22,154 bases of DNA from a virus (lineage: Duplodnaviria > Heunggongvirae > Uroviricota > Caudoviricetes): the IMG/VR virus record IMGVR_UViG_2540341091_000004. One strand, given 5' to 3'. A model generated the notes under the pieces. The model searched no databases and was not told the origin of the DNA. It saw only the letters and a program-made list of their open reading frames with translations. The position numbers and the translations under genes were made by a program. Shown here in pieces: positions 5,888-22,154 of this stretch. Positions within the stretch are counted from its first letter, which is position 1. Every line of letters starts with the position of its first letter.

Positions 5888-6367
5888 TTTTATTCCTACG
5901 GGTCTTATTCTGACAATATATCCTGTGTTCCAGACTGCCACATCACCACATCCTGTGCCATTATCTGACTCACATTACATACATCGCATCGGGATACAGT
6001 AGTAGCACTTTCTGTAATACAGCTTCCGGTTTCTTCCACCATCGCACCGGGATAAATCCGCGAATCATTAACGCGGTAAAAACCCGGTGTGCATCGTTTT
6101 TAATTATTCCCGCACACTCACGCAGAAGGAATTCCCCGTCGGGCTACGGTCATGGTTAATGCGGGAATACGGCGACGATACAGCGCAGCTAAAAGGGTAA
6201 TGGACGGATAGACCGGTTTATTTCATTCTACAGGATTCTGAGTGTCCCCAACTCCCTCCAATCGTCTGAGCTCACCTGTGTAGTTTTAATTTTCATCAAT
6301 CCATTTAACTATCGTTTAATTGTTGTCACATAGGATTCTGCCGTTTTTAACAATGCAGGATAATAAG

Positions 6368-6661: not shown

Positions 6662-6692
6662 TTGCATGAGTTGCCCATCGATATGAGCAACT

Positions 6693-7154
6693 CTATCTGC
6701 ACTGCTCATTAATATACTTCTGGGTTCCTTCCAGTTGTTTTTGCATAGTGATCAGCCTCTCTCTGAGGGTGAAATAATCCCGTTCAGCGGTGTCTGCCAG
6801 TCGGGGGGAGGCTGCATTATCCACGCCGGAGGCGGTGGTGGCTTCACGCACTGACTGACAGACTGCTTTGATGTGCAACCGACGACGACCAGCGGCAACA
6901 TCATCACGCAGAGCATCATTTTCAGCTTTCGCATCAGCTAACTCCTTCGTGTATTTTGCATCGAGCGCAGCAACATCACGCTGACGCATCTGCATGTCAG
7001 TAATTGCCGCGTTCGCCAGCTTCAGTTCTCTGGCATTTTTGTCGCGCAGGGCTTTGTAGGCGATTGCGTTATCACGGTAATGATTAACAGCCCATGACAG
7101 GCAGACGATGATGCAGATAACCAGAGCATAAATAATCGCGGCGACTCTGCTCAC
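6693..7154 (-). CDS. Rz: Rz i-spanin (inner-membrane spanin)
   Basis: 153 aa, matches lambda Rz almost throughout (…[26 protein letters not shown]…QKYINEQCR). Starts at GTG 7154, overlapping the endolysin stop. Confidence 0.9.
6752..6934 (-). CDS. Rz1: Rz1 o-spanin (outer-membrane lipoprotein) embedded in Rz in the +1 frame
   Basis: 60-aa [60 protein letters not shown], lambda Rz1-like proline-rich lipoprotein. Confidence 0.85.
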
Positions 7155-7684
7155 TGATCTATCCCCCAACAGGCTAATGCGCTTTCCTGGTCACGACGAA
7201 TAACCTGTCCATAGCAGTTATTTGAACGTATGCGGCAATCGCGCCCACCATCTTTTATCCACCAGCGAATCGCCTCGCATGCACCTTTACGATCACCGGC
7301 ATTCAGCCGCTTATAAAACGTCGACGGGAAACACTTACCGGGGCCAATGTTATAGGGACAAAATGACGCGATACCCGCTTTCTGTGGTTCGGTCAGTGGC
7401 ACTTTAATATTGCGCTCCACCCATGCCAGCGCCTTATCCCGTTCAATGGCGTTAACCTGGTCGCATTTTTCCTTCGACAGTTTCATACCGGGAACAACGG
7501 GTTTTCCATCCACCACCGTGGCACCCCGACAGATGGTCCAGATGCCGGAACCATCGCGGTATGCCGTTGTGTGGTTACCTTCTTTTTCATCCAGAAACTG
7601 GTCGAGAATATCAGGCGCAGGCGCACCGACGGCAATCAGTGCCAGAACGGCAGCCGACAGGCCGTATCTGATTTTTGCGTTCAT
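7151..7684 (-). CDS. SAR endolysin (GH24 lysozyme, phage-21 type)
   Basis: T4-lysozyme-type catalytic triad spacing in [23 protein letters not shown] (E-9-D-6-T); N-terminal Gly/Ala-rich weakly hydrophobic segment [18 protein letters not shown] typical of a signal-anchor-release domain. Confidence 0.85.
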
Positions 7685-7789
7685 GGATATTTATCAGGAT
7701 TTATCGGTTTCTGAACCCTGGATATGTTTATCTGTCCCGGCCTGTTGAATCAGGCAAGGAATAGTTAAATACAATAGAGAGGATTGTTT

Positions 7790-8062
7790 ATGGACAATAG
7801 CACCATTTCTCTACAGGAGTTGCTCGACTGCATTTCCAGGCTTCGGGATGATGTAAATGCCCTTACTGTCGCATTTTCATATCTGGCATTCTCAATTCCC
7901 AAGGAACAAATGCAACCAACACTGGCATCGCTCCAGCTTGAATCAATCAATCCCAAATGGTCCCAGCAACAACAAAATTCTTTCAAGTGGCTGGCGGTAT
8001 TACTGGAGGAAAAATATGCTGGTGAAATTACCATTTCGGCGGAGTCTTCAGTGAACCAGTAA
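7790..8062 (+). CDS. Hypothetical 90-aa acidic protein, antisense within the lysis cassette
   Basis: ATG 7790 with GAGAGGA RBS 7 nt upstream; occupies the 343-bp gap between endolysin and the upstream gene and overlaps the 3' end of 8028-8372 convergently. No family recognised. Confidence 0.3.
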   Translation: MDNSTISLQELLDCISRLRDDVNALTVAFSYLAFSIPKEQMQPTLASLQLESINPKWSQQQQNSFKWLAVLLEEKYAGEITISAESSVNQ

Positions 8063-8372
8063 TTCTTCCCGGCAGTTTTCCTTTGTAGGTTATCCACACA
8101 CTCTGCGCCTCTAAAATTATGGGGCGCTTTTCCGGCGACTGCTCATCCCCTCCACATAACCCGGCAGCAACATCCAGGAAGACCTGTCTGATGCTCCTTC
8201 TGGCTGCTGCCTCATAAAACTCCAGCGCGGCACCTTCAACACGGTCCAGCGAGATGTCCAGGTCAAAAATTTCACCGTCAAAGCGTTCTTTGTCCTGTAA
8301 TGCTAAAGTTACCGTAACTTTATTCTCAAAATTGCGGATCCCTTTCACAATCATTTCATAGTTTTGGACCAT
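8028..8372 (-). CDS. Hypothetical protein between holin and endolysin (possibly DUF1327 / YdfR-like)
   Basis: 114-aa ORF, ATG 8372 with GGAG RBS, directly after the holin stop. Position matches ydfR in the Qin lysis cassette; family assignment is from memory only. Confidence 0.45.
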   Translation of the reverse strand: MVQNYEMIVKGIRNFENKVTVTLALQDKERFDGEIFDLDISLDRVEGAALEFYEAAARRSIRQVFLDVAAGLCGGDEQSPEKRPIILEAQSVWITYKGKLPGRITGSLKTPPKW

Positions 8373-8376
8373 TATA

Positions 8377-8592
8377 TTACTCTCCTCTCGCAGCCTTTCT
8401 TCTGTCTTCTCTGATTTTGAAGTACAGATTCGTCAGATAAGTCAGAAAGCCCAGAACCAGACTTCCCAGTACACCAATCGCAGCCCACTGAGACGGACTA
8501 ACCTGATCAAGCCATTGTAAAAACCAGTAGCCAGCACTGCCTGCGGAGGTGCCGTAGGCAATGCCTGTTGATATTTTTTCCATCTGATACAT
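8377..8592 (-). CDS. Pinholin (phage-21 S-type class II holin) with dual-start motif
   Basis: [71 protein letters not shown] matches S21 pinholin; Met1/Met4 give the antiholin/holin dual start. The ORF-track start at 8664 is an upstream extension. Confidence 0.85.
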
Positions 8593-8621
8593 ATCCCGCC
8601 CCAACAGACCTGTGCTACCGG

Positions 8622-8657
8622 AAAGAAAAAAGGCCATCAGCAAAACTCTGATGGCCT
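8622..8657 (-). terminator. Intrinsic terminator just upstream of the holin (tR'-like position)
   Basis: 10-bp stem AGGCCATCAG/CTGATGGCCT (8631-8640/8648-8657) with 7-nt loop, followed on the minus strand by TTTTTCTTTC. Confidence 0.45.
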
Positions 8658-8701
8658 GAATCACCTTTACCAGTCATGTATGAAAAAATACGCACAACCA
8701 A

Positions 8702-8731
8702 TTGACAATAATTATCATTTTCATTAAAAAT
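8702..8731 (+). promoter_or_regulatory. Candidate sigma70 promoter (TTGACA, 17 bp spacer, TAAAAA)
   Basis: Consensus -35 TTGACA at 8702-8707, A/T-rich -10-like hexamer at 8725-8730. The -10 is imperfect and the -35 is near-palindromic, so strand is uncertain. Confidence 0.25.
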
Positions 8732-8764
8732 ACCGCGTAACATTCTTATTTCATGAAGAACCAT

Positions 8765-8831
8765 ACCCGCCAGCAACCTGAGTAGCAAAAGCTGTTCATC
8801 CCCCATATTTTTGCTGGCGGGTTCTTTTTTC
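8765..8831 (+). terminator. Plus-strand intrinsic terminator (12-bp stem, long loop, T-run)
   Basis: ACCCGCCAGCAA (8765-8776) pairs perfectly with TTGCTGGCGGGT (8811-8822), followed by TCTTTTTTC. Confidence 0.45.
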
Positions 8832-9057
8832 TACTGCCCTCCTCCCCAGGAAAAGCATTTCATTCTTTTCTCATTAATCGTTACTGGAGAGAAGGCGGGA
8901 AAAAGCCAGCTCTTTGGCCCTAAATAACAGCATGGCTTCAGTCCATACAGAATCTGATTTTCCAGCTCACATAATAACCAGATGATGCAGTTGCAAAATC
9001 TGGCAACATCGGATTATTATGCGCCTGTGAAAATTTCTTCACGTTTTATTCCTTGCC

Positions 9058-9085
9058 GCCCGTGCCTCCCAGCGCGGGCTTTTTT
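9058..9085 (+). terminator. Plus-strand intrinsic terminator
   Basis: 8-bp stem GCCCGTGC/GCGCGGGC (one G-U pair), 6-nt loop, then TTTTTT. A second perfect hairpin TACCCCTC-cgga-GAGGGGTA follows at 9097-9116. Confidence 0.45.
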
Positions 9086-9404
9086 ATCCAAAAAATACCC
9101 CTCCGGAGAGGGGTATCATACAAGGGGATGACCATGATGCATGGTGCCGGGTGCCTCCCGGTGAGTCCGGCATCAGCATACGAACCCGCGATTATCCCAG
9201 AACTGACTGCTGATTCGCCCCGCCGCTTAGGGGGATTCACCATGCGTTTTTTTATTTACAAACTCTTCGCCAGACAAACAACCATTAACTGGCTGAATTG
9301 TGAGGTATTTCAATTTTTAGAAAACTGACCAACCTCCGCTTATACGCCGGGCATGGAGCGGATACAAAAAAGCCCCGCAAAAGCAGATCAGAAGGATTCG
9401 TTGT

Positions 9405-9443
9405 AAAAAAAAAGCTGTCAGATTATCGCGCTAATCTGACAGC
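9405..9443 (-). terminator. Strong minus-strand intrinsic terminator downstream of the methyltransferase gene
   Basis: Perfect 12-bp stem GCTGTCAGATTA/TAATCTGACAGC with 6-nt loop; on the minus strand it is followed by nine T. Confidence 0.6.
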
Positions 9444-9685
9444 TACAGCAGGTATCCAAAAACATGGGTGGAAACAATAAGTGAGTTAAGAAGACACGGT
9501 GTCGGATTTTTACCGATGAGCCGTTGGCGTGGTCAACCGTGACTCGCTTGTATCAACGATGAATTAATGAAGCCAATCCTTTGCAGGCTATGTACAACCC
9601 ACCACATCAGCCCTGCTGCATTGCAGGATACACTGTATCTGTAATCATTATACGGCACAGACATCCCACCAATAATTGAATTAAT

Positions 9686-10777
9686 TCACAAAATTGTATT
9701 TGCTGATAACATACTGATTTCCTGGATGGTCTGATTAAACCGCTCTGTCTCAAGCTCAACACCTAACGCCCGACGCCCCAGCGCCATTGCTGCTTTTATT
9801 GTGGAACCGGATCCCATAAAGAAATCAGCAACCAGATCGCCGGGTCGACTACTGGCATTGATTATTTGCCTGAGCATATCCGCCGGTTTCTCACACGGAT
9901 GTTTACCCGGGTAGAACTGAACGGGTTTATGCATCCAGACATCGGTATAAGGCACGGAGACTGATACGGAGAAATAGCGCCGGAGAGATTTAAACTCATC
10001 CAGCAATTCAGAATATTTGCGATTCAGTGAATCATAAGATGCCACCAACTGGTGGTGTGGTTGTTCCAGTTGTTGTTCCTGAAACTTCTCTGCCGCTATA
10101 CGGGAAAACAGTGCCTGTAACTTCCGGTAGTCAGCCTCATTCGGCAACTGCCACTGACTGGCACCAAACCAGTGGGAAACCATATTTTTCTTACCTGTGG
10201 CTTCGGCAATTTGTTTTGCCGTTATACCCAGTTCGGCACGAGCATCCCTGAAATACGATATCAGCGGTGCCATTATGTGCTGTTTGAGTTCCCTTTCTTT
10301 TGCCGCATAGCCGTCACTTTTGCCGCGATATGGCCCCTGGTAATGTTCAGCAAACAGAACGCGCTCTGTGGCAGGAAAATATGCGCGCAGACTTTCTTTA
10401 TTACACCCATTCCAACGTCCGGACGGCTTCGCCCAGATGATATGGTTAAGCACGTTGAAACGTTCACGCATCATGATCTCAATATCAGATGCCAGGCGAT
10501 GCCCACAGAACAGGTAAAGGCTTCCGGCTGGTTTCAGTACCCGCCAGAACTGGGCCAGACAGTGGTCCAGCCACTTCAGGTAATCTTCGTCCCCTTTCCA
10601 CTGATTGTCCCAGCCGTTGGGCTTCACTTTGAAGTACGGCGGATCGGTAACAATCAGATCAATGGAGTTATCAGGCAGGGACTGAATAAAATGCAGGCAA
10701 TCAGCGTTGATTAAATCAACACTGTTTATTTTTACAGTATTTTCATGGATCAGTAAGCGTAACTCTGGTAGGCTCAC
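9686..10777 (-). CDS. Orphan DNA methyltransferase, beta class (N6-adenine or N4-cytosine)
   Basis: Motif IV DPPY (IVTDPPYFKV) near the N-terminus and motif I FxGxG (FFMGSGST) near the C-terminus; architecture like YhdJ-type enzymes. GTG start at 10777 with weak RBS. No adjacent restriction endonuclease recognised. Confidence 0.85.
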   Translation of the reverse strand: MSLPELRLLIHENTVKINSVDLINADCLHFIQSLPDNSIDLIVTDPPYFKVKPNGWDNQWKGDEDYLKWLDHCLAQFWRVLKPAGSLYLFCGHRLASDIEIMMRERFNVLNHIIWAKPSGRWNGCNKESLRAYFPATERVLFAEHYQGPYRGKSDGYAAKERELKQHIMAPLISYFRDARAELGITAKQIAEATGKKNMVSHWFGASQWQLPNEADYRKLQALFSRIAAEKFQEQQLEQPHHQLVASYDSLNRKYSELLDEFKSLRRYFSVSVSVPYTDVWMHKPVQFYPGKHPCEKPADMLRQIINASSRPGDLVADFFMGSGSTIKAAMALGRRALGVELETERFNQTIQEISMLSANTIL

Positions 10778-10896
10778 TCTGCTTTTGCGCTAAAGCAGTG
10801 GGCCGTGGTTCGCTTGTGACAAGTAAGCATGAGCGAATGGCTGGCAGGTGCTACCAACACCCACCAGCCGCCCATTTTCACAGCAGGAAACCGCCA

Positions 10897-11100
10897 TTAC
10901 TGGCAGCGTCTGAATTTATTCCCGTACCCGCCGTTATCCTTCGCCAGACCCGCCAGAACTAACTGAGTCAGTATTAACTGGCACCGGGCTTCGCTTACTC
11001 CGGTAGTTCTCGTCATCATGCGTGGCGTTACCCACTTGTCAGCAGGTAAGAAATGAAGGACTGCGGCGGCGGTTTCTGTCATATCTTGCTGTTTTAGCAT
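10897..11100 (-). CDS. Small basic protein (67-75 aa), possible winged-helix DNA-binding protein
   Basis: ORF 10897-11124; start more likely ATG 11100 (AAGGG upstream) than 11124. TPRMMTRTTGVSEARCQLILTQLVLAGL resembles an HTH; no family recognised. Confidence 0.35.
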   Translation of the reverse strand: MLKQQDMTETAAAVLHFLPADKWVTPRMMTRTTGVSEARCQLILTQLVLAGLAKDNGGYGNKFRRCQ

Positions 11101-11419
11101 GTCTTTTTCCCTTCTGGTTAACATGACATACCAATAACTCTTGTCTAAAAAGCCAGCAAGATAAAAAGTCAGTATTCACGACCACCAGCGTGTTTACTGT
11201 GCTGCACCAAGTTTACAGGTACAAAAAAACCGCTCAGCGGCGGGTTTAAGTTGTGTGGCGAAGTAACCACTCTTAACACAGTAATCTAGAAAATGCGGAC
11301 CGCGTTAGTGATTTTTATCTGTTTTTCCATTATTTTTTTGCCACACAGCTTAAAACGAAAAATAAAGCAGGCGTTGCCAAACCTCACGGTGACAGTTGGC
11401 TTAGAATGAGGACATATTT

Positions 11420-12439
11420 TTGGATAAGTTTGATGAGATTCATGTAGACATTGAATCTGAGCAGCAAGCCTTCGATTTGCTTGAAAGCTATCTTGATGGT
11501 TATGGTTTACCTGACAGTTTAAGTTTCAACGGATGGCCAAACCTTACCATCAGATTAACCGGTGAAAAATTCAACAGATCGCTAACACCTTCAGTTATGA
11601 AGGGATTTGTTGAAATGCAAGCTCAAATCAACAAATCATATGCCCTTGCCAAGTACGGTGTCCCTGACGTCCGCAAACTGACCAAAGAAGAACTTGATGC
11701 CCTAGAAATAGAAGTTACGGTAGAACAGGGTTCTTCAATAGTAGAAATCAACATTGATGGCTTTTTAACCAAACTCACACAGGAACTTGTTGGTAAAATG
11801 AACGCAACTGAGATCATGTTTACTGTTCTCGGCGCAGCAGTCATCTGGGGCGGAGTAACAGTATTTAAACGGTTCTTGGACAACCGTAAAGATATTCGCC
11901 TTGCAGAAATTGCTAAGGATGGAGAGAAAGAACATCTCCGGACTATGCAGATCATGAGCGAGCAAGAAACTAAACGCCTGCGGGTTATTTCAGAAATGAT
12001 TGCGGAAAAACCACTTCTCGATAACATGGACCGTATGTCGTATGACGCTAAAACCCAAATGGTCAAATCCTTTGTGCGTTCAGATAACGCTCAAATTGAT
12101 GGCGTTACTATTGATTCTGAAATGGCGAAAGAGTTGGTTACGAATGCTCGTAGACGTTCATCAGAAATGAGGATTGATGGTATTTACCGAATTGAAGAAG
12201 TCAATAATACTGACCCAGAGAGTTTCAAAGTTAAGGTCCGACGCGTAGATACCGACCAACGTCTAACCTGCGTAGTTCAGGATGTTTTCCTTGATGAATC
12301 CGGAAACAAAGAAGCATTGCAGCGAGCTGAGTGGGAAAGAAAGCCTGTACATTTGAGCATTAACGCAAAACACGTCGATGGTGACATTAAGTCAGCAGTA
12401 ATTCTCTATGTTCGAGATGTGGAACAAAAGCCCGAGTAA
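11420..12439 (+). CDS. Membrane-anchored protein of unknown function (339 aa, single predicted TM helix); moron at the Q-lysis locus
   Basis: Only long plus-strand ORF in a minus-strand block; TTG start at 11420 with GAGGA 7 nt upstream; lower G+C than flanks by eye; hydrophobic segment IMFTVLGAAVIWGGVTVF at about aa 132-150; no recognisable catalytic motif. Confidence 0.6.
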   Translation: MDKFDEIHVDIESEQQAFDLLESYLDGYGLPDSLSFNGWPNLTIRLTGEKFNRSLTPSVMKGFVEMQAQINKSYALAKYGVPDVRKLTKEELDALEIEVTVEQGSSIVEINIDGFLTKLTQELVGKMNATEIMFTVLGAAVIWGGVTVFKRFLDNRKDIRLAEIAKDGEKEHLRTMQIMSEQETKRLRVISEMIAEKPLLDNMDRMSYDAKTQMVKSFVRSDNAQIDGVTIDSEMAKELVTNARRRSSEMRIDGIYRIEEVNNTDPESFKVKVRRVDTDQRLTCVVQDVFLDESGNKEALQRAEWERKPVHLSINAKHVDGDIKSAVILYVRDVEQKPE

Positions 12440-12448
12440 TCGGGCTTC
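12429..12448. terminator. Hairpin between convergent genes (339-aa ORF and Q)
   Basis: 8-bp stem AAGCCCGA/TCGGGCTT with GTAA loop, spanning the stop of the plus-strand ORF; A/T-rich flanks on both sides. Confidence 0.35.
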
Positions 12449-12453
12449 AATAA

Positions 12454-12831
12454 TCAATCTTTAATTTCGGGGTCCATCTCTAGACTAATTTCCAGCATCG
12501 ATAGGCAGCCATCAATAAACCCCTCAGCCATCTGTATCTCAATGCGTATTAGTTTCTCATCCTTTTTACGAGCCTTGGCGAGCTTTCTTTTAGAGATACC
12601 GTATAGGTAATGGGCAACAAGAAGCGAATGTTCGTCCGGCCTTTTTTGCCTTAGACGAGCAAGACAACCTTCAATAATTAATGCATCACTATCTGAACAT
12701 GCCTGACGTGTTTTGCTTGTATAGGGAAGAAGCCCTTTAAACCCAGCAGCTATAGGAGAATAGTCTACTCCTGAACTATCACTCGCCGCCCATGCTCCCC
12801 AACGATCCAGAACCATTTGAATATCACGCAT
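12454..12831 (-). CDS. Late-gene antiterminator Q (QuuD / phage-82-type Q family)
   Basis: MRDIQMVLDRWGAWAASDSSGVDYSPIAAGFKGLLP... closely follows the DLP12 QuuD pattern as I recall it (MRDIQMVLERWGAWAA...). Start taken at ATG 12831. Confidence 0.8.
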   Translation of the reverse strand: MRDIQMVLDRWGAWAASDSSGVDYSPIAAGFKGLLPYTSKTRQACSDSDALIIEGCLARLRQKRPDEHSLLVAHYLYGISKRKLAKARKKDEKLIRIEIQMAEGFIDGCLSMLEISLEMDPEIKD

Positions 12832-12848
12832 CAACTTTCTCCACAAAA

Positions 12849-13844
12849 TCAGGCCAGCACGCCAATTGCCAGCGCACGATCGATAAAACGAAATATCAGC
12901 TCCAGCTGGGAGCCATACTTCTCTTCAAATGCCACGGTATCCGCATGCAGCTCGTCGTGATGCTTTCTGCACAAAGGCAACACAAAGAGGTCATGCGCTT
13001 TTGTACCCATTCCCCCCTGACCGTGGCCTATCAGGTGGTGGGGATCATCAGCAGGCTTTCCACAACATGCACACGGCTGTGTCTTAACCCAGCGCGTGTA
13101 CTTTTCATTAACCCAGCGGCGACGTTTTGGGCGTAACATAAAAGACTCCGGCGACTCCGGATCCACTTTCAGCGCCAGCACCTTTTTCGCCTTATCCTGG
13201 ATGATGCTGGTGGCAGGAACCGAAGGCACAAGGTCACTTTCCCGGGTGACAGACGGCACAACAGGCTTCGGTAATCTCAGTGCCTTACGGGCTGCACTTT
13301 CCGGTAAGGCATCCGCCAGGTCATTACGAATCAGCCACCAGCACAGTTCCGGCATTGTCACAACGTGACTGTCATCAAAACCGAGATCCCGACGCACAAC
13401 AGACAACACCCAGCGGGCACAGTTATCCGTTGCCATTGATTCCAGCCGTTCCGTGAACTGATCGCGCAGCTGGTTATCGCAGTGCCAGCACAGACGGATT
13501 GCGCCCGGCGCGTGTCGCATTGTTGTCATGTTCTCGCTGTGCCAGTCGGAATGAGGCCACTGGCAGCCTTTTTCACGAAGTAACCAGCTTTCAAGACATT
13601 CCACGCCACCAGCACGACGGATCACTGCCTCATTGCGGAACACGGCCCGAACGACAGGATCATCCGCCAGCGGTTGTGATGCCGCCGGAACGGCACCACT
13701 GGCAAAAGATGAATAACGTTCCGGCTCAGGCTCCAGCAGGACACGCCCCTGCATAAACAGGGGCATCAGCTCTGAACCAGGTCTGAACAATACGATCCCC
13801 ATACGCGGGGCAATTTCAGGGGTCAGTAGTGCTCTCACAGTCAC
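12849..13844 (-). CDS. DUF968-like protein with HNH-like Cys/His motif (YdfU-like)
   Basis: C-terminal CACCGKPADDPHHLIGHGQGGMGTKAHDLFVLPLCRKHHDELH; GTG start at 13844 one nt after the upstream stop. Confidence 0.65.
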   Translation of the reverse strand: MTVRALLTPEIAPRMGIVLFRPGSELMPLFMQGRVLLEPEPERYSSFASGAVPAASQPLADDPVVRAVFRNEAVIRRAGGVECLESWLLREKGCQWPHSDWHSENMTTMRHAPGAIRLCWHCDNQLRDQFTERLESMATDNCARWVLSVVRRDLGFDDSHVVTMPELCWWLIRNDLADALPESAARKALRLPKPVVPSVTRESDLVPSVPATSIIQDKAKKVLALKVDPESPESFMLRPKRRRWVNEKYTRWVKTQPCACCGKPADDPHHLIGHGQGGMGTKAHDLFVLPLCRKHHDELHADTVAFEEKYGSQLELIFRFIDRALAIGVLA

Positions 13845-13845
13845 C

Positions 13846-14643
13846 TCAATGAACGGTATCGAGCAGCTTTAACAGCTCAGGGAATCGGGATTCGAAGAAA
13901 TGCGGCTGCGTCTCGCGCGGATTTGCAGGACTGGTGATGTTCTTGCCGAACATGCAGCCTTTCGCTGTCAGCGACCAGAATTTTTTGATGTTGTTAATCG
14001 CGGTACGGCTGTATCGTTCGCGCTGCTCGACGATCCCCAGCTTCACCATCTGGTGATATGCCTGATTAGCTGTCAGGCGGATACCATACTGCTTCAGCAG
14101 TGCACTCAGTGACAGTGTCGGGCGACTTGAGCCATCGTGTGCATCAGCAGGAGCATCAATGGCATAGCGCGGTGCCAGATTCGGTAAGCCAACAGCCTCC
14201 TGGAGTTTCTGACAGGCACCAAGCACTGAAGAGTTAGACAGGTTTAACTCCCGGCGCATAAAGTCCAGCAGGATCACGCCAGCCTGCATCTTGTCAGCAG
14301 CCTGTCCGGATAATTTTTCCGGTGCGCTGGTTACCATATCGAAAGTACGGATCACCTTCAGATGGAATGACGGGCTGATCCACATTGCATAGGCATACAC
14401 CAGTTCTTTGCAGACATACGTCCCCTGGTTATTTCCGCCACGAATAACGTTAACTGGCTCTATATTGACCGAGTTGCAAATCTGCAACTCGCTTATTAAA
14501 CGTTCAGTTTGCTCATTGCGGAGCCAGAATGCAGGCTTATGCTTATCCAGAGAACCGGCAGCCCTGTGCAGATCGTTCAGGCTGTAACGACCATAAGCAT
14601 CACGACGAACTTCAATACCATCAATGACCATCAGATTATTCAT
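13846..14643 (-). CDS. KilA-N domain protein (phage antirepressor-like)
   Basis: N-terminal MNNLMVIDGIEVRRDAYGRYSLNDLHRAAG...KPAFWLRNEQTERLISEL looks like KilA-N; strong AGGAG RBS before ATG 14643. Confidence 0.7.
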   Translation of the reverse strand: MNNLMVIDGIEVRRDAYGRYSLNDLHRAAGSLDKHKPAFWLRNEQTERLISELQICNSVNIEPVNVIRGGNNQGTYVCKELVYAYAMWISPSFHLKVIRTFDMVTSAPEKLSGQAADKMQAGVILLDFMRRELNLSNSSVLGACQKLQEAVGLPNLAPRYAIDAPADAHDGSSRPTLSLSALLKQYGIRLTANQAYHQMVKLGIVEQRERYSRTAINNIKKFWSLTAKGCMFGKNITSPANPRETQPHFFESRFPELLKLLDTVH

Positions 14644-14662
14644 ACTTCGTTTCTCCTCTTAA

Positions 14663-15052
14663 TCAGGCGGCTGCACCCGCCGGTTTCTCGTACTTACTGA
14701 TAGTGATCTCGACCTTCCCTTCCGGGATAACCGGTCCCCACTCCACCAGCATTCTTTTCACCTGACTGTCGTCTTCCCACACACCCGCATGGGTCAGGGC
14801 GTCAAACAGCGCCTTGTTATAGTTGTCCAGATCGCGGATCCGGTTATCCGGAGGAAACAACACGATCTCCACTGAAGCAGGTGCCGACGTTGGTTTCGGC
14901 AGACGACGTAACTGCTCAACTATTGCTGCGCACGCCGCGCTCTGGAATTTGCGCCCCGCTGCGCTTATCAGACTCTTACCAGCAAACGCCCCTTTGTTGG
15001 GGTGTCGCCTGTACGTGTTCACGCTGGGAGGGAAAGGCAAGATCAGCTTCAT
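14663..15052 (-). CDS. rusA: RusA-family Holliday-junction resolvase
   Basis: LPFPPSVNTYRR...RDLDNYNKALFDALTHAGVWEDDSQV matches the RusA signature (LPxPPSxNxYxR ... RDLDNxxKAxxDALTxAGxWxDDxQV). Confidence 0.8.
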   Translation of the reverse strand: MKLILPFPPSVNTYRRHPNKGAFAGKSLISAAGRKFQSAACAAIVEQLRRLPKPTSAPASVEIVLFPPDNRIRDLDNYNKALFDALTHAGVWEDDSQVKRMLVEWGPVIPEGKVEITISKYEKPAGAAA

Positions 15053-15375
15053 ACTTTCAGGCCCCTCTCATGTAACCAGTGGGCTGCACGCAGCCTGGCG
15101 TTTTCCTCACCGGCAAGCAGTGCGCGGATAATCCCGACCGCCTCGCTGTCGTCGTCCTTCACCGCGGTATGAAGAGTTATCCCCCGGGCCACGCCACGCT
15201 TTATCGTGATGACGCTTTTTTTCTCCAGTGCGCGAAGATGCTCCACCGCTGCATTCACCGAACGGTATCCCAGCATGGTTGCCACCTCCTGATTGGTTGG
15301 CGGAAAGCCACGTTCTTGCTGGTAAGAAATCAGCATATCCAGCACCTGCTGCTGGCATTGAGTTAACGTCGTCAT
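15049..15375 (-). CDS. LexA DNA-binding-domain-only protein (108 aa; no S24 peptidase domain)
   Basis: LTQCQQQVLDMLISYQQERGFPPTNQEVATMLGYRSVNAAVEHLRALEKKSVITIKRGVARGITL aligns by eye with the LexA N-terminus ([65 protein letters not shown]); the protein ends about 40 aa later. Confidence 0.7.
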   Translation of the reverse strand: MTTLTQCQQQVLDMLISYQQERGFPPTNQEVATMLGYRSVNAAVEHLRALEKKSVITIKRGVARGITLHTAVKDDDSEAVGIIRALLAGEENARLRAAHWLHERGLKV

Positions 15376-16025
15376 GCCGCCATCTCCCTGACCAGTTTTT
15401 CCGCCTGCTGGCGAACCTGCGCCAGAAAGGCCTCACCACATGCCTCAAGTTCATCGCGCCCGATGTAGCTGATTGCCGGTCCCTTCCAGGTCTTGTCGAA
15501 AACAGCAATAGCACCAGCGAAGAAAGCGCCTGTCGGCACCTGCTTCTCGTCCTTCGGGATAAACCAGGCTGGCAGTTCAAAACCAATACGCCCGCGAATA
15601 AAAGCAATATGGTCTGCATCTTCCGGCCACCACACTTCGCTGGTGGCAGCTTTGATCAGGAAAACATAGCGCCCGCCTTTATCACGCATGGCACTGGCAT
15701 GCTTCATGATGTAACGCATGCCGGTGATGTATTGCCCCTCATGCTGACTGGCGCGGCTGTACGGGGGATTACCAAAGGCAGCACCTTTAAGCTCCGCAAG
15801 ACGTTCTGACCAGTCATGCGCCAGCGCGTTGTCTTCCGCAGTGTAATACGCGGCGCATTTGGCGTTATCACCATCAGTAAACAGATCCAGAACAAACGGG
15901 CCAAACAGGGTGTTAATTCCCCAGAAAATGTTGTCCGGCGTGCGCCACTGATCGCCCACTTCCTTCAGTTCATGGGCTGGTTTGTTCCGCAGCTCCACCA
16001 GCGCCTGGCAATATTTATTACTCAT
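15372..16025 (-). CDS. Phage Dam-like N6-adenine DNA methyltransferase
   Basis: Catalytic NPPY motif (FGNPPYSRA); start ATG 16025 overlaps the upstream stop (TAATG). Position matches the yfdM methylase in CPS-53. Confidence 0.8.
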   Translation of the reverse strand: MSNKYCQALVELRNKPAHELKEVGDQWRTPDNIFWGINTLFGPFVLDLFTDGDNAKCAAYYTAEDNALAHDWSERLAELKGAAFGNPPYSRASQHEGQYITGMRYIMKHASAMRDKGGRYVFLIKAATSEVWWPEDADHIAFIRGRIGFELPAWFIPKDEKQVPTGAFFAGAIAVFDKTWKGPAISYIGRDELEACGEAFLAQVRQQAEKLVREMAA

Positions 16026-16513
16026 TAAGCCCCCACGTAATTCCCTGACAGATACCACTCTTCACCCGATGCAGCGCGCTTGCTGCTTTTCCGTAAACAC
16101 CGCTCACGACGCGCAAGAAAATTGTTTCGCTCTTGCTGGGAGTGGCTTTCACGGAATGCCGCCATCCACACCGTTGCAGCACGACGGTATAAGCCCCTGG
16201 ACTCCAGTTCTTCCGCCTGGCGGGTCAGGCACAAAATCACCCGGGGATCGTTAGTGCCGACATAGAAATTGCGCACAGGTCTGGATTCACGAACTGGTTG
16301 CGGTTCCGGCTCCTGCGGTATCTCAGTCAGCCGCGGGAAATGTCTGCGTGTATCCCCTTCACAACGGTGAGCCACACGCCCACTCTGACGTAACTTGCTT
16401 GCTGACTGCAGAACGCGCTGTCGTGAGTAACCTGCAAAAGCATCCGCAATGTCTCCGGAAGTACACCCCGGATGGGCTTCAATGAATTTCTGAACGTCAT
16501 TCAAAAGACTCAT
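16025..16513 (-). CDS. PerC-like putative regulator (YfdN-like)
   Basis: LESRGLYRRAATVWMAAF resembles the PerC-family core; ORF-track length of 164 aa matches YfdN. From memory only. Confidence 0.4.
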   Translation of the reverse strand: MSLLNDVQKFIEAHPGCTSGDIADAFAGYSRQRVLQSASKLRQSGRVAHRCEGDTRRHFPRLTEIPQEPEPQPVRESRPVRNFYVGTNDPRVILCLTRQAEELESRGLYRRAATVWMAAFRESHSQQERNNFLARRERCLRKSSKRAASGEEWYLSGNYVGA

Positions 16514-16515
16514 GA

Positions 16516-17289
16516 TCACCCCCTGAATCCTGCCGGGATCTGGCTGTAGTCCACGTTGTCGTAACTGGCTTTGAAGTACGGGTCTTCGCGTTTTTCGGTG
16601 TACGTGCTGACGGACGGCGATAAGCGCAGGGAAAGCTCATCCCATTTTTCCCGCAGCTTCGACGGGCTGAGCACGTTACGGCACCAGAACGGATCGCGAC
16701 TGACGCGGCTGTACATCTCGCAGATTTGTTTATGAGTACGACCATCCTGCACACACATCAGGCGAATTTCGTTTGCCCAGGCTGTCCAGTTCGGTTCTTT
16801 GGGACGAACCACCTCGCCGTCACATTCGGCGGCATGCTCGTACAGGGCGATGATTTTTTTCCAGAGCCACTGTGCGCAGGTCAAATCATCCTGCGTCCCC
16901 CACTGGCGCTTTTTAGGGCTGAATACAACCGCATCAGGATGGCGAGTTAAAAAATCCTGTTCAGCCGTCTGCGTGTCCGGTTGCGAAGAGTCCGGACGAG
17001 AAGGTTTTTTATCTGACGGATCATGTTTTGATTTTACTGACGGATCCCCGCCAGATTCTGACGGGTGAAAACCCGCTTTTTTGCCAGATTTCGACGCATC
17101 AAATTTTGACGGGTCAGATTTTGATGCGTCAGATTTTGACGGGTCAGAATCTGACAGTTGAGAAAATGCCGCTGCCTGAAGCTTCGCAACGTTAAGCTGA
17201 TAAACATTCGACGCATTGCGGTTACCCTGGCGACGCGCCTTACGCGTTAACCAGCCTTCTGCTTCCAGCCGTGCGATACCCGCTGGCAT
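16516..17289 (-). CDS. Replication initiator (O-like), 5' end replaced at a rearrangement junction; possibly non-functional
   Basis: Contains an in-gene iteron array encoding SDSDPSKSDASKSDPSKFDASKSG and a conserved-looking C-terminal domain. The first codons (MPAGI) are read from lom-derived sequence, so the native N-terminus and promoter are gone. Confidence 0.5.
   Translation of the reverse strand: MPAGIARLEAEGWLTRKARRQGNRNASNVYQLNVAKLQAAAFSQLSDSDPSKSDASKSDPSKFDASKSGKKAGFHPSESGGDPSVKSKHDPSDKKPSRPDSSQPDTQTAEQDFLTRHPDAVVFSPKKRQWGTQDDLTCAQWLWKKIIALYEHAAECDGEVVRPKEPNWTAWANEIRLMCVQDGRTHKQICEMYSRVSRDPFWCRNVLSPSKLREKWDELSLRLSPSVSTYTEKREDPYFKASYDNVDYSQIPAGFRG
17012..17160. repeat. Iteron-like direct repeats (about 8 copies of tYTGACGGRTCA) - candidate replication origin
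   Basis: Copies at about 17012, 17037, 17057, 17089, 17105, 17120, 17135 and 17149; the last four are spaced about 15 bp apart; each is a short palindrome (TGAC...GTCA). Confidence 0.55.
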
Positions 17290-17625
17290 GAAGATTCCGT
17301 GCGTAACCGCTGGTTCAGCGTGATGGCGGGGCCGTCTGTGCGCGTGAATGAATGGTTCAGCGCGTATGCGATGGCGGGTGTGGCTTACAGCCGTATTTCG
17401 ACTTTCTCCGGGGATTATCTCCGCGTAACTGACAACAAGGGGAAAACGCACGACGTGCTGACCGGAAGTGATGACGGTCGCCGCAGCAACACGTCTCTGG
17501 CGTGGGGGGCTGGCGTGCAGTTTAACCCGACCGAATCCGTGGCCATTGATATTGCTTATGAAGGCTCCGGCAGTGGCGACTGGCGCACTGACGGTTTCAT
17601 CGTGGGTGTCGGTTATAAATTCTGA
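17275..17625 (+). pseudogene. lom: lom 3' fragment (Lom/Ail/OmpX outer-membrane protein, N-terminal ~95 aa missing)
   Basis: DTRWHEDSVRNRWFSVMAGPSVRVNEWF...DGFIVGVGYKF matches the C-terminal half of lambda Lom; homology begins abruptly at about 17275 with no signal peptide. Confidence 0.85.
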
Positions 17626-17651: not shown

Positions 17652-17678
17652 AGCCCGCCGGTTCAGGCGGGCTTTTTT
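17652..17678 (+). terminator. Intrinsic terminator between lom and stf
   Basis: Perfect 8-bp stem AGCCCGCC/GGCGGGCT with GGTTCA loop, then TTTTTT. Confidence 0.6.
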
Positions 17679-17689
17679 GTGGGGTGAAT

Positions 17690-20600
17690 ATGGCAGTAAA
17701 GATTTCAGGTGTACTGAAAGACGGTGCAGGTAAACCGGTACAGAACTGCACAATCCAGCTGAAAGCAAAACGTAACAGCACCACGGTGGTGGTGAACACG
17801 GTGGCATCTGAAAATCCGGATGAAGCCGGGCGTTACAGCATGGACGTTGAGTACGGTCAGTACCGCGTTATTCTGTTGGTGGAAGGATTCCCGCCGTCAC
17901 ATGCCGGGACCATCACCGTGTATGAAGATTCTCAACCCGGTACGCTGAATGATTTTCTCGGTGCCATGACGGAGGATGATGCCCGTCCGGAGGCACTGCG
18001 CCGTTTTGAACTGATGGTGGAAGAGGTGGCGCGTAACGCGTCCGCAGTGGCACAGAACACGGCAGCCGCAAAGAAGTCAGCCAGCGATGCCGGCACATCT
18101 GCCCGTGAGGCGGCAACCCATGCAACCGATGCTGCAGGCTCAGCACGTGCCGCCAGCACGTCAGCCGGACAGGCTGCATCATCTGCTCAGTCAGCATCTT
18201 CCAGCGCAGGAACGGCATCAACAAAGGCCACTGAAGCATTAAAAAGTGCTGCCGCTGCAGAGTCCTCAAAAAGCGCGGCAGCCACCAGTGCCGGTGCGGC
18301 GAAAACGTCAGAAACGAATGCCGCAGCATCACAACTATCAGCAGCCACTTCTGCATCCACCGCGACCACGAAGGCGTCAGAAGCTGCCACCTCAGCCCGG
18401 GATGCGGCGGCCTCAAAAGAGGCAGCGAAATCATCAGAAACGAACGCATCATCAAGTGCCAGTAGTGCAGCTTCCTCGGCAACGGCGGCAGGAAATTCCG
18501 CGAAGGCCGCAAAAACGTCTGAGACGAATGCGGATAACAGCGCACAGGCGGCAGCAGACTCACAAACTGCATCGGCAAACTCCGCGACAGCAGCCAAAAA
18601 ATCAGAAACCAACGCGAAAAATAGCGAGGCAGCAGCAAAGAGCAGCGAAACAAACGCTAAAGCCAGCGAAACTAATGCTAAATCCAGTGAAACAAACGCG
18701 GCGAAATCTGCGGCGGACGCACTTAATTATTGCAACCAGGCGCAAGTAATTGTTGGCGATAATATCGGTCTTGGCTCAGCCCCGCGTGATTGTCCTGATA
18801 TTTCCGGCAACCCATCAGGGTATATCGGATTTATGCGCATTATGAGTAATGCAAAAGGCTTTCCATCGATTGCATCCGGTGAAAGCAGTCTTACGGGGTT
18901 TATTAGTCAGGTAGATGGAACACCAGCGTATACAGGTGTATTTCAGGGATGGGCTACGCGCTCGCTTTATACTTATCGCTGGAATCCGACAACAGGCCCG
19001 CAATGGACACGCCACGCTCGCAAAAATGAAGTGGACCGTCTTGACCAATGGAATAGCGAAACATGGTTATATAACCATGATAAATCCATGCGCCTGGGTT
19101 TAACCGGATCAACATGGGGGTGTTACAGCGACACACAAAAAAAATGGATACCGCTTGATGTTTCTCATGGTGGCACTGGCGCAAATAGCCTTGATGACGC
19201 CAAAACTAATTTGCAAATCCCTGAGGGTGGATTAACAAAAGCGATGACCCTTAATGCCCCTGGTGGTGCAGTGGATGGCAAATACTACCCTGTCATAATA
19301 GACACATCTGCAATGAATGGGAGCGGTGCCATGTTATGTCCTGTTGAAATAAAAACAGCAGGAGGTCCGGCATCAAATCCGCTTAATAGTAACTCATTTT
19401 TTGGGTTCATTCGATGTGGTGGCTGGAGTGACGTTCGCGATGTGGCTTACGGGTCATTTGTTTGCTATGAAAAAAATGAACTCGGGATACTTTGCATTAA
19501 AGCGTCGCAAAGAGATTATGCGCAGCATGTAGCTTTCTACATCCATAAAAGCGCTTTTCCTGTCGTTGTGCAAACTGGCTACAAGGCGAAAGTTAAGGTT
19601 CCAACAGAAGACTACGTAATTGGTGACAACGGGGTTAGATATAAGTTTGGTGTATCAACGTCAACGGAGGATAACGACAAGAACTTTGTTAAAAATGTTC
19701 TTGACTTCACTGGCGGTGAACATGGCTTCTACAGCAACCTTCCGTTCAGACAAGGGGTGTCAGAAAGGATTGCATTAACAAATGGCCTGAGTTTTGACAA
19801 AAATTTTACCGTCACTATTCCTATATTTGTAAACAATGGTCAGATTAAAGCAACACAATCTTTCACCGCGTACGGTACAGACGCTTCAAACAGAACATTT
19901 GTTTCTCAAAGATTACAATCCGAAGGAGGTCCGGTTGTCGATCAAACTGAACTAAGGGCCGCTAACGCTTCTGGTGAAATTATTGTCAGGGACATAAATA
20001 ATTCAGGGAACAGTAAGTTCTTTAATTTTAACCTTGATGGTACCTTCAGTTCTTACCAGGGATTGGTTGTTCACACAGGGCAAAACTGGAGCACTCAACA
20101 TACAGATAATGTAAATAAGTTTAAGCCAATAGCAGGGAGCGCAGGCGGTCCTGACGGAACAATGGTTGTTGGCGGATTCCATGCTCAATTTAGCGGTAAT
20201 TACGTCACACAATTCGCCGGTCGCAACTCCAAATTTTGGGCAAGAAGCTTTGAGGCTGGGGTTGATAAGGGATGGAAACGACTATTAACAGTAGACGATC
20301 TCAATTCATCTACCGATCTTGCTGTCAGGTCATTAACCACATCTAACCCGGTAAAATCTGGCGGAGGGCGAATTGATGTCCTTGGAAGCACGTCAGACTA
20401 TAGCAAAATGGATTGCTTTGTACGTGGGTTTGATAGCACCGGTAATTCTCTCGCGTGGGCGTTGGGTTCGTCAGTCGGCGTAAGTAAGATGCTGTCGCTA
20501 AAAAATTTCTTTAGCGGAGCTGAGATACTGTTAAATGGTAATGACGGCGCGGTTCAACTCAAAACAGGTGCTGTTAACGGGGCTAAAGCGCAGGCGCTCA

Positions 20601-21292
20601 CTATCAACAAGGATGAGGTTAATTCAACTGTTGATTTAACTCTTACAAAACAAACAGGGACTGGCAATCGTTTTGTTTTACAGAACTTAGGTAATACAGA
20701 ACTATCATTTGCCGCAAAAGTATGGGGATCAAGTGATCGACAAAACGTTTTTGAGGTTGGAACGTCTGCTGCGTATCTGTTTTATGCGCAAAAAACGTCA
20801 GCAGGCCAGTTGTTTGATGTAAATGGCGCTATTAATTGCACAACGCTGAATCAGTCATCAGACCGCGACCTTAAAGACGATATTCTCGTTATCAGCGACG
20901 CGACGAAAGCAATCCGTAAAATGAACGGATACACCTACACGCTCAGGGAAAACGGGATGCCTTATGCTGGCGTTATTGCACAGGAAGTAATGGAGGCGAT
21001 ACCAGAAGCTGTGGGATCGTTTACTCATTACGGTGAAGAGTTGCAGGGACCAACGGTTGACGGCAATGAATTACGTGAAGAAACACGTTATCTGAATGTT
21101 GACTACGCCGCCGTGACGGGGTTACTTGTTCAGGTCGCCCGTGAAACAGATGGTCGCGTTACCGCGCTGGAAGAGGAAAACATAACGCTACGTAAAAATC
21201 TGGCAACAGCAGGCACCCGGATCAGCACTCTGGAAAATCAGGTAAGCGAACTGGTTGCACTTGTCCGGCAGTTAACAGGAAGCGAACATTGA
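17690..21292 (+). CDS. stf: Side tail fibre protein with C-terminal intramolecular chaperone (peptidase S74-like) domain
   Basis: N-terminal ~330 aa (MAVKISGVLKDG..., Ala/Ser-rich SETNA repeats) match lambda Stf; the rest diverges. The last ~144 aa (20858-21289, SDRDLKDDILVISDATKAIRKMNGYTYTL...) carry the Ser/Lys dyad of self-cleaving chaperone domains. Confidence 0.9.
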   Translation: MAVKISGVLKDGAGKPVQNCTIQLKAKRNSTTVVVNTVASENPDEAGRYSMDVEYGQYRVILLVEGFPPSHAGTITVYEDSQPGTLNDFLGAMTEDDARPEALRRFELMVEEVARNASAVAQNTAAAKKSASDAGTSAREAATHATDAAGSARAASTSAGQAASSAQSASSSAGTASTKATEALKSAAAAESSKSAAATSAGAAKTSETNAAASQLSAATSASTATTKASEAATSARDAAASKEAAKSSETNASSSASSAASSATAAGNSAKAAKTSETNADNSAQAAADSQTASANSATAAKKSETNAKNSEAAAKSSETNAKASETNAKSSETNAAKSAADALNYCNQAQVIVGDNIGLGSAPRDCPDISGNPSGYIGFMRIMSNAKGFPSIASGESSLTGFISQVDGTPAYTGVFQGWATRSLYTYRWNPTTGPQWTRHARKNEVDRLDQWNSETWLYNHDKSMRLGLTGSTWGCYSDTQKKWIPLDVSHGGTGANSLDDAKTNLQIPEGGLTKAMTLNAPGGAVDGKYYPVIIDTSAMNGSGAMLCPVEIKTAGGPASNPLNSNSFFGFIRCGGWSDVRDVAYGSFVCYEKNELGILCIKASQRDYAQHVAFYIHKSAFPVVVQTGYKAKVKVPTEDYVIGDNGVRYKFGVSTSTEDNDKNFVKNVLDFTGGEHGFYSNLPFRQGVSERIALTNGLSFDKNFTVTIPIFVNNGQIKATQSFTAYGTDASNRTFVSQRLQSEGGPVVDQTELRAANASGEIIVRDINNSGNSKFFNFNLDGTFSSYQGLVVHTGQNWSTQHTDNVNKFKPIAGSAGGPDGTMVVGGFHAQFSGNYVTQFAGRNSKFWARSFEAGVDKGWKRLLTVDDLNSSTDLAVRSLTTSNPVKSGGGRIDVLGSTSDYSKMDCFVRGFDSTGNSLAWALGSSVGVSKMLSLKNFFSGAEILLNGNDGAVQLKTGAVNGAKAQALTINKDEVNSTVDLTLTKQTGTGNRFVLQNLGNTELSFAAKVWGSSDRQNVFEVGTSAAYLFYAQKTSAGQLFDVNGAINCTTLNQSSDRDLKDDILVISDATKAIRKMNGYTYTLRENGMPYAGVIAQEVMEAIPEAVGSFTHYGEELQGPTVDGNELREETRYLNVDYAAVTGLLVQVARETDGRVTALEEENITLRKNLATAGTRISTLENQVSELVALVRQLTGSEH

Positions 21293-21319
21293 TATCCTTC
21301 AAGCTCTGAAGGAGGCTGT

Positions 21320-21466
21320 TCCTGGTACGTTCAGACTGTTGTTGAGCTGGAAATCGCAACGGAGGAAGAAATCCTGTTGCTGGAAGTCTGGAAAAAGTAT
21401 CGGGTATTGCTGAACCGTGTTGATACGTCAACTGCACAGGATATTGAATGGCCAGCACTGCCGTAG
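21320..21466 (+). pseudogene. tfa: Tail fibre assembly protein (tfa) C-terminal remnant
   Basis: Translation ...[40 protein letters not shown] matches the lambda Tfa C-terminus (…[40 protein letters not shown]…). No start codon; the frame is continuous with the stf stop. Confidence 0.6.
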
Positions 21467-21563
21467 GGTAAAACATATAAATTCTATAATTAGATGTATC
21501 TTTCCATTTACGGCAAGGAAGGGGGCTTGGAAGACGTAAAGCATCTCACACCGAGATTATTTT

Positions 21564-22154
21564 TTATATGTCAGGTGTCTGAAGTTTTGCTTTGGCTCTT
21601 AAAATGGTTTGCCGCGAGGTTTTGAATTCCCGGGCAATGGCACTTATACTTACACCTGACTTAATTCGTTCGAATACCACCTGTTTCTGTTCTTCATTTA
21701 ACACAGGTGGTCGACCAAAACGTTTCCCTGCGCCGCGGGCTCTTACTATCCCGGAATGAGTGCGTTCAAGTAAAAGGTCTCGTTCAAATTCAGCGACTGC
21801 TGAAATTACGTGCATCATCATTTTTCCTGTTGGACTGGTCAGGTCAATGCCCCCCAATGCTAAGCAATGCACTCTGATACCTGTTTCGGTCAGTTGTTCC
21901 ACTGTTTTCCTGATATCCATTGCATTACAACCAAGGCGATCCAGTTTTGTCACAATCAATTGATCACCACATTTCAGGCGAGCAAGCAACCGGTTAAAAC
22001 CAGGACGCTCACTGGTTGCTGCTGAGCCGCTAATGTGTTCTTCGATTATTTGCTGAGGTTTGATTTTAAAACCTGCACTTTCGATTTCCCGGCGTTGATT
22101 TTCGGTGGTCTGATCCAGCGTTGATATCCGACAGTAAGCAAAAATTCGAGACAT
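21564..22154 (-). CDS. pin: Serine recombinase / DNA invertase (Pin/Hin/Gin family)
   Basis: 196-aa [29 protein letters not shown]... with catalytic Ser in the N-terminal resolvase domain and a C-terminal HTH; resembles PinR/PinQ as I recall them. The start codon is the last three bases of the window. Confidence 0.9.

Follow-up and report, generated by a model that had tools for sequence, protein, structure and literature searches.

How does a side tail fibre of the lambda type come to end in a self-cleaving chaperone domain, with the neighbouring tfa gene present behind it only as a fragment? The question is raised by the stf (side tail fibre) gene in a stretch of viral DNA of 22,154 nucleotides (Caudoviricetes; IMG/VR record IMGVR_UViG_2540341091_000004), the whole of which is referred to here as the window. 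In Tfa proteins, the N-terminal domain is variable and binds the fibre, and the helical domain at the C-terminus is conserved and trimerises (PMC9608196). An earlier note, made from the sequence alone, had read the end of this stf gene as the scar of a module swap, in which a self-chaperoning tip took the place of a lambda-type tip and most of tfa. The present analysis upholds that reading by the S74 features of the fibre end, by a true, start-less tfa 3' end downstream of it, and by phages with the order stf-tfa-pin that appear to preserve a state before the swap. We consider it very probable that the locus is a mosaic lambdoid stf with a T5-type lateral-fibre tip and its own intramolecular chaperone (IMC), that a tfa pseudogene follows it, and that this cassette was moved by recombination.

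A composite side tail fibre

Residues of Stf are numbered here from the GTG at 17684; the ATG at 17690 (MAVKISG) corresponds to the lambda start and, in the PGAP annotation, to the start of RefSeq WP_000268784.1 (Table 1). The lambda-like N-terminus described in the earlier note is confirmed by the PF08400 domain (E 1.3e-71) and by 86% amino acid identity to lambda orf-401 over residues 3-286 (blastp). The gene is also placed as in lambda, directly after lom, which is here a relic. Beyond residue 286, neither similarity to lambda orf-314 or Rac-type Stf nor a Tfa-dependent, gp37-like tip was found. blastp divides the protein further, with residues 1-286 lambda-like, residues 1-512 common to PhiR70_1, residues 878-1202 common to Ayreon (83%), and residues 1048-1202, which include the IMC, common to mEp460, Ayreon and PhiR70_1; by these comparisons the fibre is a finer mosaic than the earlier note assumed. 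A sequence search of the PDB with mid-fibre residues 287-1058 returned nothing at E ≤ 0.1, and no NCBIfam family was matched by Stf or by the product of the tfa relic. The 33-nucleotide shaft repeats straddle the end of lambda homology at 18531, and an out-of-register exchange of the shaft could be promoted by them.

The distal part of the fibre is related to the lateral fibres of virulent siphoviruses, the homology covering shaft, tip and IMC. The closest comparison is with the Nonagvirus FritzHoffmann (Bas20, MZ501068; L075, 3501-5908), which is 83% identical in nucleotides over 18763-21179 and 78.6% identical in amino acids over residues 320-1175; the likeness extends over 2.4 kb including the tip and the IMC, and the N-terminal attachment domain of the Bas20 fibre is distantly related (34%). 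The fibre of the T5-like phage slur09 (L076, 4578-6576), whose gene adjoins that for a 'collar protein for L-shaped tail fibre attachment', shows 70% amino acid identity over residues 441-1183 and 74% nucleotide identity. A module of this length and identity points to gene exchange between virulent and temperate coliphages that is fairly recent. One study found no recent virulent/temperate mosaics; the exception it made for stf genes was regarded as ancient and driven by invertases (PMC3945230).

Homology to the virulent-phage fibres does not run to the stop codon of stf; it ceases at 21172-21179, within the coiled coil of the IMC. The last ~113 nucleotides of the coiled-coil helix (21180-21292) are not shared with the Bas20 and slur09 fibres, whose genes end in a different coiled-coil tail and a terminator of their own and lack a tfa relic. 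The last ~38 codons of the coiled coil (…ENQVSELVALVRQLTGSEH) recur nearly unchanged on IMCs that are otherwise 26-35% identical (P0100-P0102, P0109). This distribution suggests that the end of stf carries a second short conserved linker, 21180-21292.

The earlier note had assigned the fibre end to the peptidase S74 type, with a serine and a lysine five residues apart, and both points hold. Residues 1059-1110 match positions 1-57 of the 58-position Peptidase_S74 profile with E 1e-12 and 48.6 bits, where the curated gathering cutoff is 22 bits. The catalytic positions are taken by Ser1059 (TCA, 20858-20860) and Lys1064 (20873-20875) in the motif S1059-D-R-D-L-K1064-D-D-I. Across 21 aligned homologues, with identities as low as 26%, Ser1059, Asp1060 and Lys1064 never vary, and the three residues are conserved in 50/50 copies from IMG/VR viral contigs. 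A profile of the 21-homologue alignment matches the solved chains of S16 gp37 (6F45, 3e-13), MyRF ICA (7DC3, 1e-5) and GA-1 (3GUD, 4e-3), and its Ser and Lys columns fall on those of solved IMC chains, 6F45 and 7DC3 among them. At the level of sequence, the C-terminal domain has the marks of an S74-type IMC.

The predicted architecture agrees: in a monomer AlphaFold2 (AF2) model of residues 1000-1202 (mean predicted local distance difference test score, pLDDT, 75), the last 144 residues show strands in a small alpha/beta part, then a 58-residue terminal helix. The top Foldseek matches in the PDB are 7DC3 (E 9e-4, probability 1.0) and the IMC of the endosialidase endoNF of phage K1F (3GW6, E 4.5e-3, probability 0.98). 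Residues 1008-1058, just upstream, form what is predicted to be the last domain of the mature fibre; its homologues are a domain inside T4 gp34 and the segment of Salmonella phage S16 gp37 that precedes the cleavage site. T5 pb1 is cut at Thr1263|Ser1264, with Lys1269 as base, and this self-processing takes place when E. coli expresses pb1 on its own (PMC4690869); by analogy, the predicted cleavage site here is Ser1058|Ser1059.

The likeness to pb1 (PDB 4UW7/4UW8) comprises a long siphovirus lateral fibre, a terminal IMC of ~133-144 residues, a scissile Ser, a Lys at +5 and a coiled-coil helix at the end, although pb1 itself was not detected by the sequence search against the PDB. The difference is that here a lambda-type N-terminus would serve a lambdoid tail and a tfa relic lies downstream. 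The K1F endosialidase, which bears an IMC domain (PMC4690869), GA-1 gp12 and MyRF ICA belong to the same Pfam family, PF13884, and match in profile and predicted fold with aligned Ser and Lys; their passengers, however, are unrelated (a sialidase beta-helix, a neck appendage and a eukaryotic transcription factor, respectively), and identity is 13-24%.

The tfa relic and its junction with stf

After the TGA of stf (21290-21292) the same frame continues for 57 sense codons and a TAG, which together make up 21293-21466, as the earlier note had stated. Its further claim, that the frame continues into a remnant matching the lambda Tfa C-terminus, is correct from about 21330 onwards. There, 127 nucleotides (21330-21456) match the lambda tfa 3' end at 85% identity (blastn, E 1e-36), residues 147-191 of the 194-residue lambda Tfa align with 21329-21463 at 75.6% identity (tblastn, E 4e-18), and the 57-residue continuation matches positions 87-130 of the 131-position Caudo_TAP profile (PF02413, E 5.4e-18). 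The match leaves out the first 37 nucleotides (21293-21329), which are unlike tfa and constitute a linker.

PGAP annotates 21341-21466 as a pseudogene 'missing N-terminus'. The relic is not expected to be expressed or functional, because it lacks both a start codon and the N-terminal domain that binds the fibre. Other tfa-like sequence was found neither in the rest of the window (tblastn with lambda Tfa) nor in the whole 44.5-kb genome of mEp460. The locus otherwise resembles lambda (Ur-lambda) with Stf and Tfa, and the Rac/Qin-type stf-tfa-pin loci, in its N-terminal 286 residues (86%), its position after lom, the tfa 3' end (85-96% nucleotide identity) and the pin-linked DNA; in those systems, however, the tip ends in '...NIAFNYIVRLA' and a separate 194-residue Tfa is required, whereas here that tip and Tfa residues 1-146 are gone. 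The truncated tfa genes tfaD and tfaX of the K-12 prophage DLP12 (L077, 3535-4098 and 4876-5061) have other break points and were rejected as instances of this junction; leftover 3' fragments of tfa seem to be frequent at the right end of DLP12-type prophages. An antisense open reading frame at 21222-21476 (84 residues) was also rejected as a gene, as it has no Pfam hit and lies opposite conserved coding DNA.

The junction is widespread. The stop, the 37-nucleotide linker and the start of tfa homology are identical in mEp460, Ayreon and PhiR70_1 in a junction alignment. A 21-nucleotide junction word occurs in 51 IMG/VR contigs, and the 171-nucleotide junction (21230-21400) in 804 of 5426 complete E. 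coli genomes (about 15%). Sequence comparison indicates that the scar was inherited, not made in this prophage, and that a single ancestral junction spread via E. coli lambdoid phages and prophages. As all copies derive from one junction, the in-frame relation between stf and the relic is a single one-in-three event and carries no weight. Another 12 contigs with this IMC subfamily end at the stf stop and are hence uninformative on absence of the relic; in two viral contigs (L064 and L074), a related IMC ends in '...GSEE*' and is followed by a terminator, with no relic.

Essentially the same gene is present as RefSeq WP_000268784.1 and in phage mEp460 (NC_019716), whose gp20 is 98.9% identical over 1202 residues and has the same stop, linker and relic, with no intact tfa genome-wide. 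The differences lie in the relic ending, in dinI/int DNA downstream in place of pin, and in mEp460 being a complete phage where the window holds a defective prophage.

Probable crossovers in the relic and the surrounding prophage

Among the viral contigs, one and the same 5' part of the relic leads into no fewer than 8 different Tfa C-termini (including …EWPALP, …PAVPVME, …PTNPVRE, …PEEPDTV, …PVAPIG and …VNPVWPPPSKR), and about 15 different sequences lie 3' of the relic stop. A pin gene within 600 nucleotides downstream accompanies …EWPALP in 12/12 informative contigs and every other ending in 0/31. Within the window, positions 21330-21392 are identical to mEp460 at 59/63 sites and to mEp460_ev081 (ev081), which has a pin-linked intact tfa, at 52/63, and so carry cassette-specific variants; positions 21393-21452 are identical to ev081 at 60/60 sites and to mEp460 at 55/60, and are of the pin-linked tfa type. 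The stf-tfa-pin phages mEp460_ev081 and PhiR42_1, with intact tfa, show 96% nucleotide identity to 21330-21620 and, judged by this similarity, represent the 'before' state of this context. Taken together, the alignments support later homologous crossovers that would resolve in the relic. In mEp460_ev081 (L006, 977-5311), a phage-database derivative of mEp460, the S74-type stf and relic are replaced by a Rac-type stf, an intact tfa and pin, the reverse of the proposed swap. Crossovers between lambda and Rac have been mapped experimentally in stf and in a 95%-identical tfa region (PMC3945230).

The pin gene belongs to the local context of the relic's 3' end and lies outside the fibre cassette. 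It encodes an intact Pin-family serine invertase, and the end of the window coincides with its start codon. Mu G/gin, P1 C/cin and e14 P/pin likewise have a Pin-family invertase gene adjoining tail fibre and tfa sequences. Here, in contrast to those systems, tblastn and blastp found no second, inverse copy of a tip or of tfa in the window, no long inverted repeats bracket the tip (an 18-nucleotide pair with 89% complementarity is probably due to chance), and a gix-type 26-mer had no match at ≤ 3 mismatches. A Pin-mediated invertible segment was rejected for want of bracketing inverted repeats and of a gix-like site.

The window is a rearranged DLP12-type defective E. coli prophage at tRNA-Arg. 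Its annotation places intD at 1-1164 and contains no head or tail genes, J included. Because the prophage has no tail genes, its stf can only serve as a recombination reservoir or donor, or act in trans. The match to other lom-stf loci (blastn) begins at 17273, and the lom relic abuts, at 17272/17273, a truncated replication gene on the opposite strand (16516-17451, -). The block from ~4060 to 17272 is inverted relative to other strains and holds a nohD-like DNA-packaging gene, lysis genes, Q, early-right genes and this truncated replication gene; long inverted repeats were not seen at its ends. Inside the replication gene, at 17085-17159, four overlapping repeats with 15-nucleotide spacing (CAGATTTTGACGGGT-like) and flanking inverted copies look like origin iterons within a lambda O-type replication gene. 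An intact iss/bor gene at 6368-6661 (+) encodes a 97-residue serum-survival lipoprotein, and its presence agrees with avian pathogenic E. coli strains being the best whole-window matches.

Table 1. Coordinates of the features at the fibre locus and beside it, as positions in the window
Feature	Position	Strand	Basis
lom relic, C-terminal 108 residues of Ail/Lom	17299..17625	+	Pfam Ail_Lom positions 92-199/199, E 1.5e-64; PGAP 'missing N-terminus'
Lambda-homologous left arm: lom 3' end and first ~283 stf codons	17498..18531	+	blastn, 87% nucleotide identity to lambda
Terminator-like hairpin, lom/stf intergenic	17652..17673	+	Consensus scan; mEp460 counterpart annotated as rho-independent terminator
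stf, side tail fibre gene, intact	17684..21292	+	1202 residues from GTG 17684; 1200 from ATG 17690
Prophage tail fibre N-terminal (virion attachment) domain, residues 3-136	17690..18091	+	Pfam PF08400, phage_tail_N
Ala/Ser-rich shaft repeats, AAKxSETNA-type, five copies of a 33-nucleotide unit	18065..18622	+	Repeat search, translation
Lateral/L-shaped tail fibre module common to virulent siphoviruses	18763..21179	+	megablast, blastn/blastp, annotations
Last domain of the predicted mature fibre, residues 1008-1058	20705..20857	+	PDB phmmer/profile matches 4UXE/5NXF and 6F45; Foldseek probability 1.0 over 66 residues
C-terminal IMC / Peptidase S74 domain, residues 1059-1202 (144)	20858..21289	+	Pfam PF13884
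Long C-terminal helix of the IMC, residues 1141-1198, predicted trimerising coiled coil	21104..21277	+	AF2 DSSP helix, model residues 142-199, pLDDT 88-94
stf stop TGA	21290..21292	+	Sequence; TGA in 51/51 junction-carrying viral contigs
37-nucleotide linker between stop and tfa homology	21293..21329	+	6-7/37 identities to intact tfa genes vs 36/37 to mEp460, Ayreon, PhiR70_1
tfa relic, last ~45 codons including stop TAG (21464-21466)	21330..21466	+	blastn, Pfam Caudo_TAP, PGAP
Putative homologous crossover interval in the relic	21389..21405	+	Site-by-site comparison
pin-type serine DNA invertase, 196 residues	21564..22154	-	Pfam Resolvase and HTH_7

Alternative explanations and implications

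Several observations weigh against a self-chaperoning cassette acquired by recombination. Foldseek TM-scores to solved IMCs are low (0.25-0.39), which is expected because the model is a monomer of an intertwined trimer. The upstream Arg/Asp 'folding sensor' of T5 and K1F was not located in this Stf. The absence of tfa from mEp460 fits Tfa independence of Stf, but it is no proof that the fibre folds, because lambdoid phages such as lambda PaPa can plaque without side fibres. The crossover interval in the window is based on a handful of diagnostic sites. Finally, an intact tfa with the 5' allele of the relic (QTVVELE) was not found, 31/31 exact IMG/VR matches being relics behind an IMC, and the first event cannot be reconstructed.

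The strongest competitor is the view that stf is dead cargo, a pseudogene of a defective prophage that has not yet decayed and whose S74 domain plays no role. The loss of J and the other tail and head genes speaks for it, as do the truncated lom abutting the inverted early region and a scan from 17200 that gave no sigma-70-like promoter match upstream of stf, promoter-like matches being not above chance. We nevertheless regard it as possible but unlikely, since the 3.6-kb reading frame is intact and differs little from its counterpart in mEp460, a phage isolate, the catalytic residues have been conserved, and copies of the IMC among the viral contigs have an excess of synonymous changes, with 55 synonymous and 49 nonsynonymous polymorphic sites (constrained). 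Moreover, stf/tfa sequences of defective prophages are experimentally proven donors to infecting lambdoid phages (PMC3945230), and the objection concerns the role of the gene in this host only, not what it encodes. A quite different proposal is that the relic still works, either by read-through of the TGA, adding the Tfa C-terminal helix to the IMC, or by translation of its own from the Shine-Dalgarno-like string AAGGAGG in the linker (21309-21315). The relic does share the reading frame of stf, this frame is uninterrupted in 48/49 viral contigs that reach the relic stop, and the C-terminal domain is the conserved, trimerising part of Tfa (PMC9608196). Yet no ATG, GTG or TTG follows AAGGAGG at a usable distance, a shared frame inherited with one junction counts as one event, and the relic is frameshifted in one viral contig. 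Polymorphism is near neutral in the linker (0 synonymous, 3 nonsynonymous sites) and close to neutral in the relic (15 and 31), against the constraint on the IMC. A read-through extension would in any case be lost with the cleaved IMC, and the related virulent-phage fibres work without any relic. On the strength of the single ancestral junction, the missing start codon and the near-neutral polymorphism we rejected both forms of this proposal, which is highly improbable.

The swap may also have taken place in two steps, the IMC tip being placed before an intact tfa and the redundant tfa then losing its 5' three quarters by deletion. The linker, unlike tfa and unlike the DNA after virulent-phage fibres, could be left over from such an intermediate, and tfa fragments are common in defective prophages (tfaD and tfaX of K-12 DLP12). 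However, no locus with an IMC and a full-length tfa was recovered, and 51/51 viral contigs and the sampled E. coli genomes share the deletion end point; we think this route improbable, and the outcome and present function are identical either way.

The favoured explanation, a mosaic fibre moved as a cassette, can be put in mechanistic terms as follows. The first ~283 codons would supply the lambda-type virion-attachment and shaft part, and codons ~320-360 to ~1165-1175 a module of the T5 L-shaped lateral fibre type that brought its own IMC. If Stf behaves as T5 pb1 and the K1F endosialidase do, folding of the trimer would be nucleated by three IMC domains, after which Ser1059, activated by Lys1064, would cut Ser1058|Ser1059, releasing a 144-residue chaperone and leaving a mature fibre of 1058 residues. 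A separate Tfa would then not be needed; self-cleavage and Tfa independence are inferred here from these related proteins. The junction of IMC, stop, linker and relic would have arisen once, in an ancestor, and homologous recombination would later have carried the whole cassette from one E. coli lambdoid phage or prophage to another, its left arm being the conserved stf 5' region and its right arm the core of the tfa relic, likewise conserved. In this prophage, the right crossover at ~21389-21405 would join the cassette to a resident tfa-pin context.

The earlier note predicted a change of receptor specificity and folding that does not depend on Tfa, and both are reasonable inferences. In T5-like phages and small siphoviruses, O-antigen serves the lateral fibres as a primary receptor that is not essential (PMC8594841, PMC4690869), and because these fibres are related, a surface glycan such as O-antigen is the most likely receptor by analogy. 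Working particles result when the lambda Stf N-terminus is fused to the tailspike sequence of K1F, gene 17 (PMC11338833); since the K1F endosialidase bears an IMC, an architecture of this kind is compatible with lambda tails.

A more far-reaching idea is that the relic and the last ~110 nucleotides of the IMC coiled coil are not debris and are kept as a universal right-hand adaptor, by second-order selection on the evolvability of host range. We give this idea little credence. If it were true, the adaptor would preserve the most conserved ~60-130 nucleotides of tfa right after a self-chaperoning tip, and any Tfa-dependent lambdoid phage could take an IMC-type tip from a prophage in one double crossover, such tips including modules 83% identical in nucleotides to those of virulent Nonagvirus/T5-like phages. 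It would then be a bridge for gene flow between virulent and temperate siphoviruses.

The feature is real, but it is common and already annotated. In PGAP, the protein from E. coli goes by 'prophage tail fiber N-terminal domain and S74 family endopeptidase-containing protein', and a tfa pseudogene is annotated behind it, so that the architecture is named in RefSeq. The literature search found no paper on a lambdoid Stf with an IMC and a tfa relic, nor on the relic as a crossover site, a role that follows directly from established principles. Current understanding is unchanged, as intramolecular chaperones, the modularity of Tfa and recombination of stf/tfa with defective prophages are all established. 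What is added is that the junction arose once and now occurs widely, that crossovers occur inside the relic, and that the tip module is 83% identical in nucleotides to that of a virulent phage. The practical value is modest: by analogy with other IMC-bearing fibres, a widespread fibre should fold without a helper protein and would therefore be a convenient single-gene module for engineering lambda-based particles, with the tfa relic and the stf 5' end suggested as natural splice points for tip swaps. For the biology of these phages, the locus offers a clean natural example of homologous crossovers resolving within a pseudogene fragment, and of a tip module circulating between virulent (Nonagvirus, T5-like) and temperate lambdoid phages.

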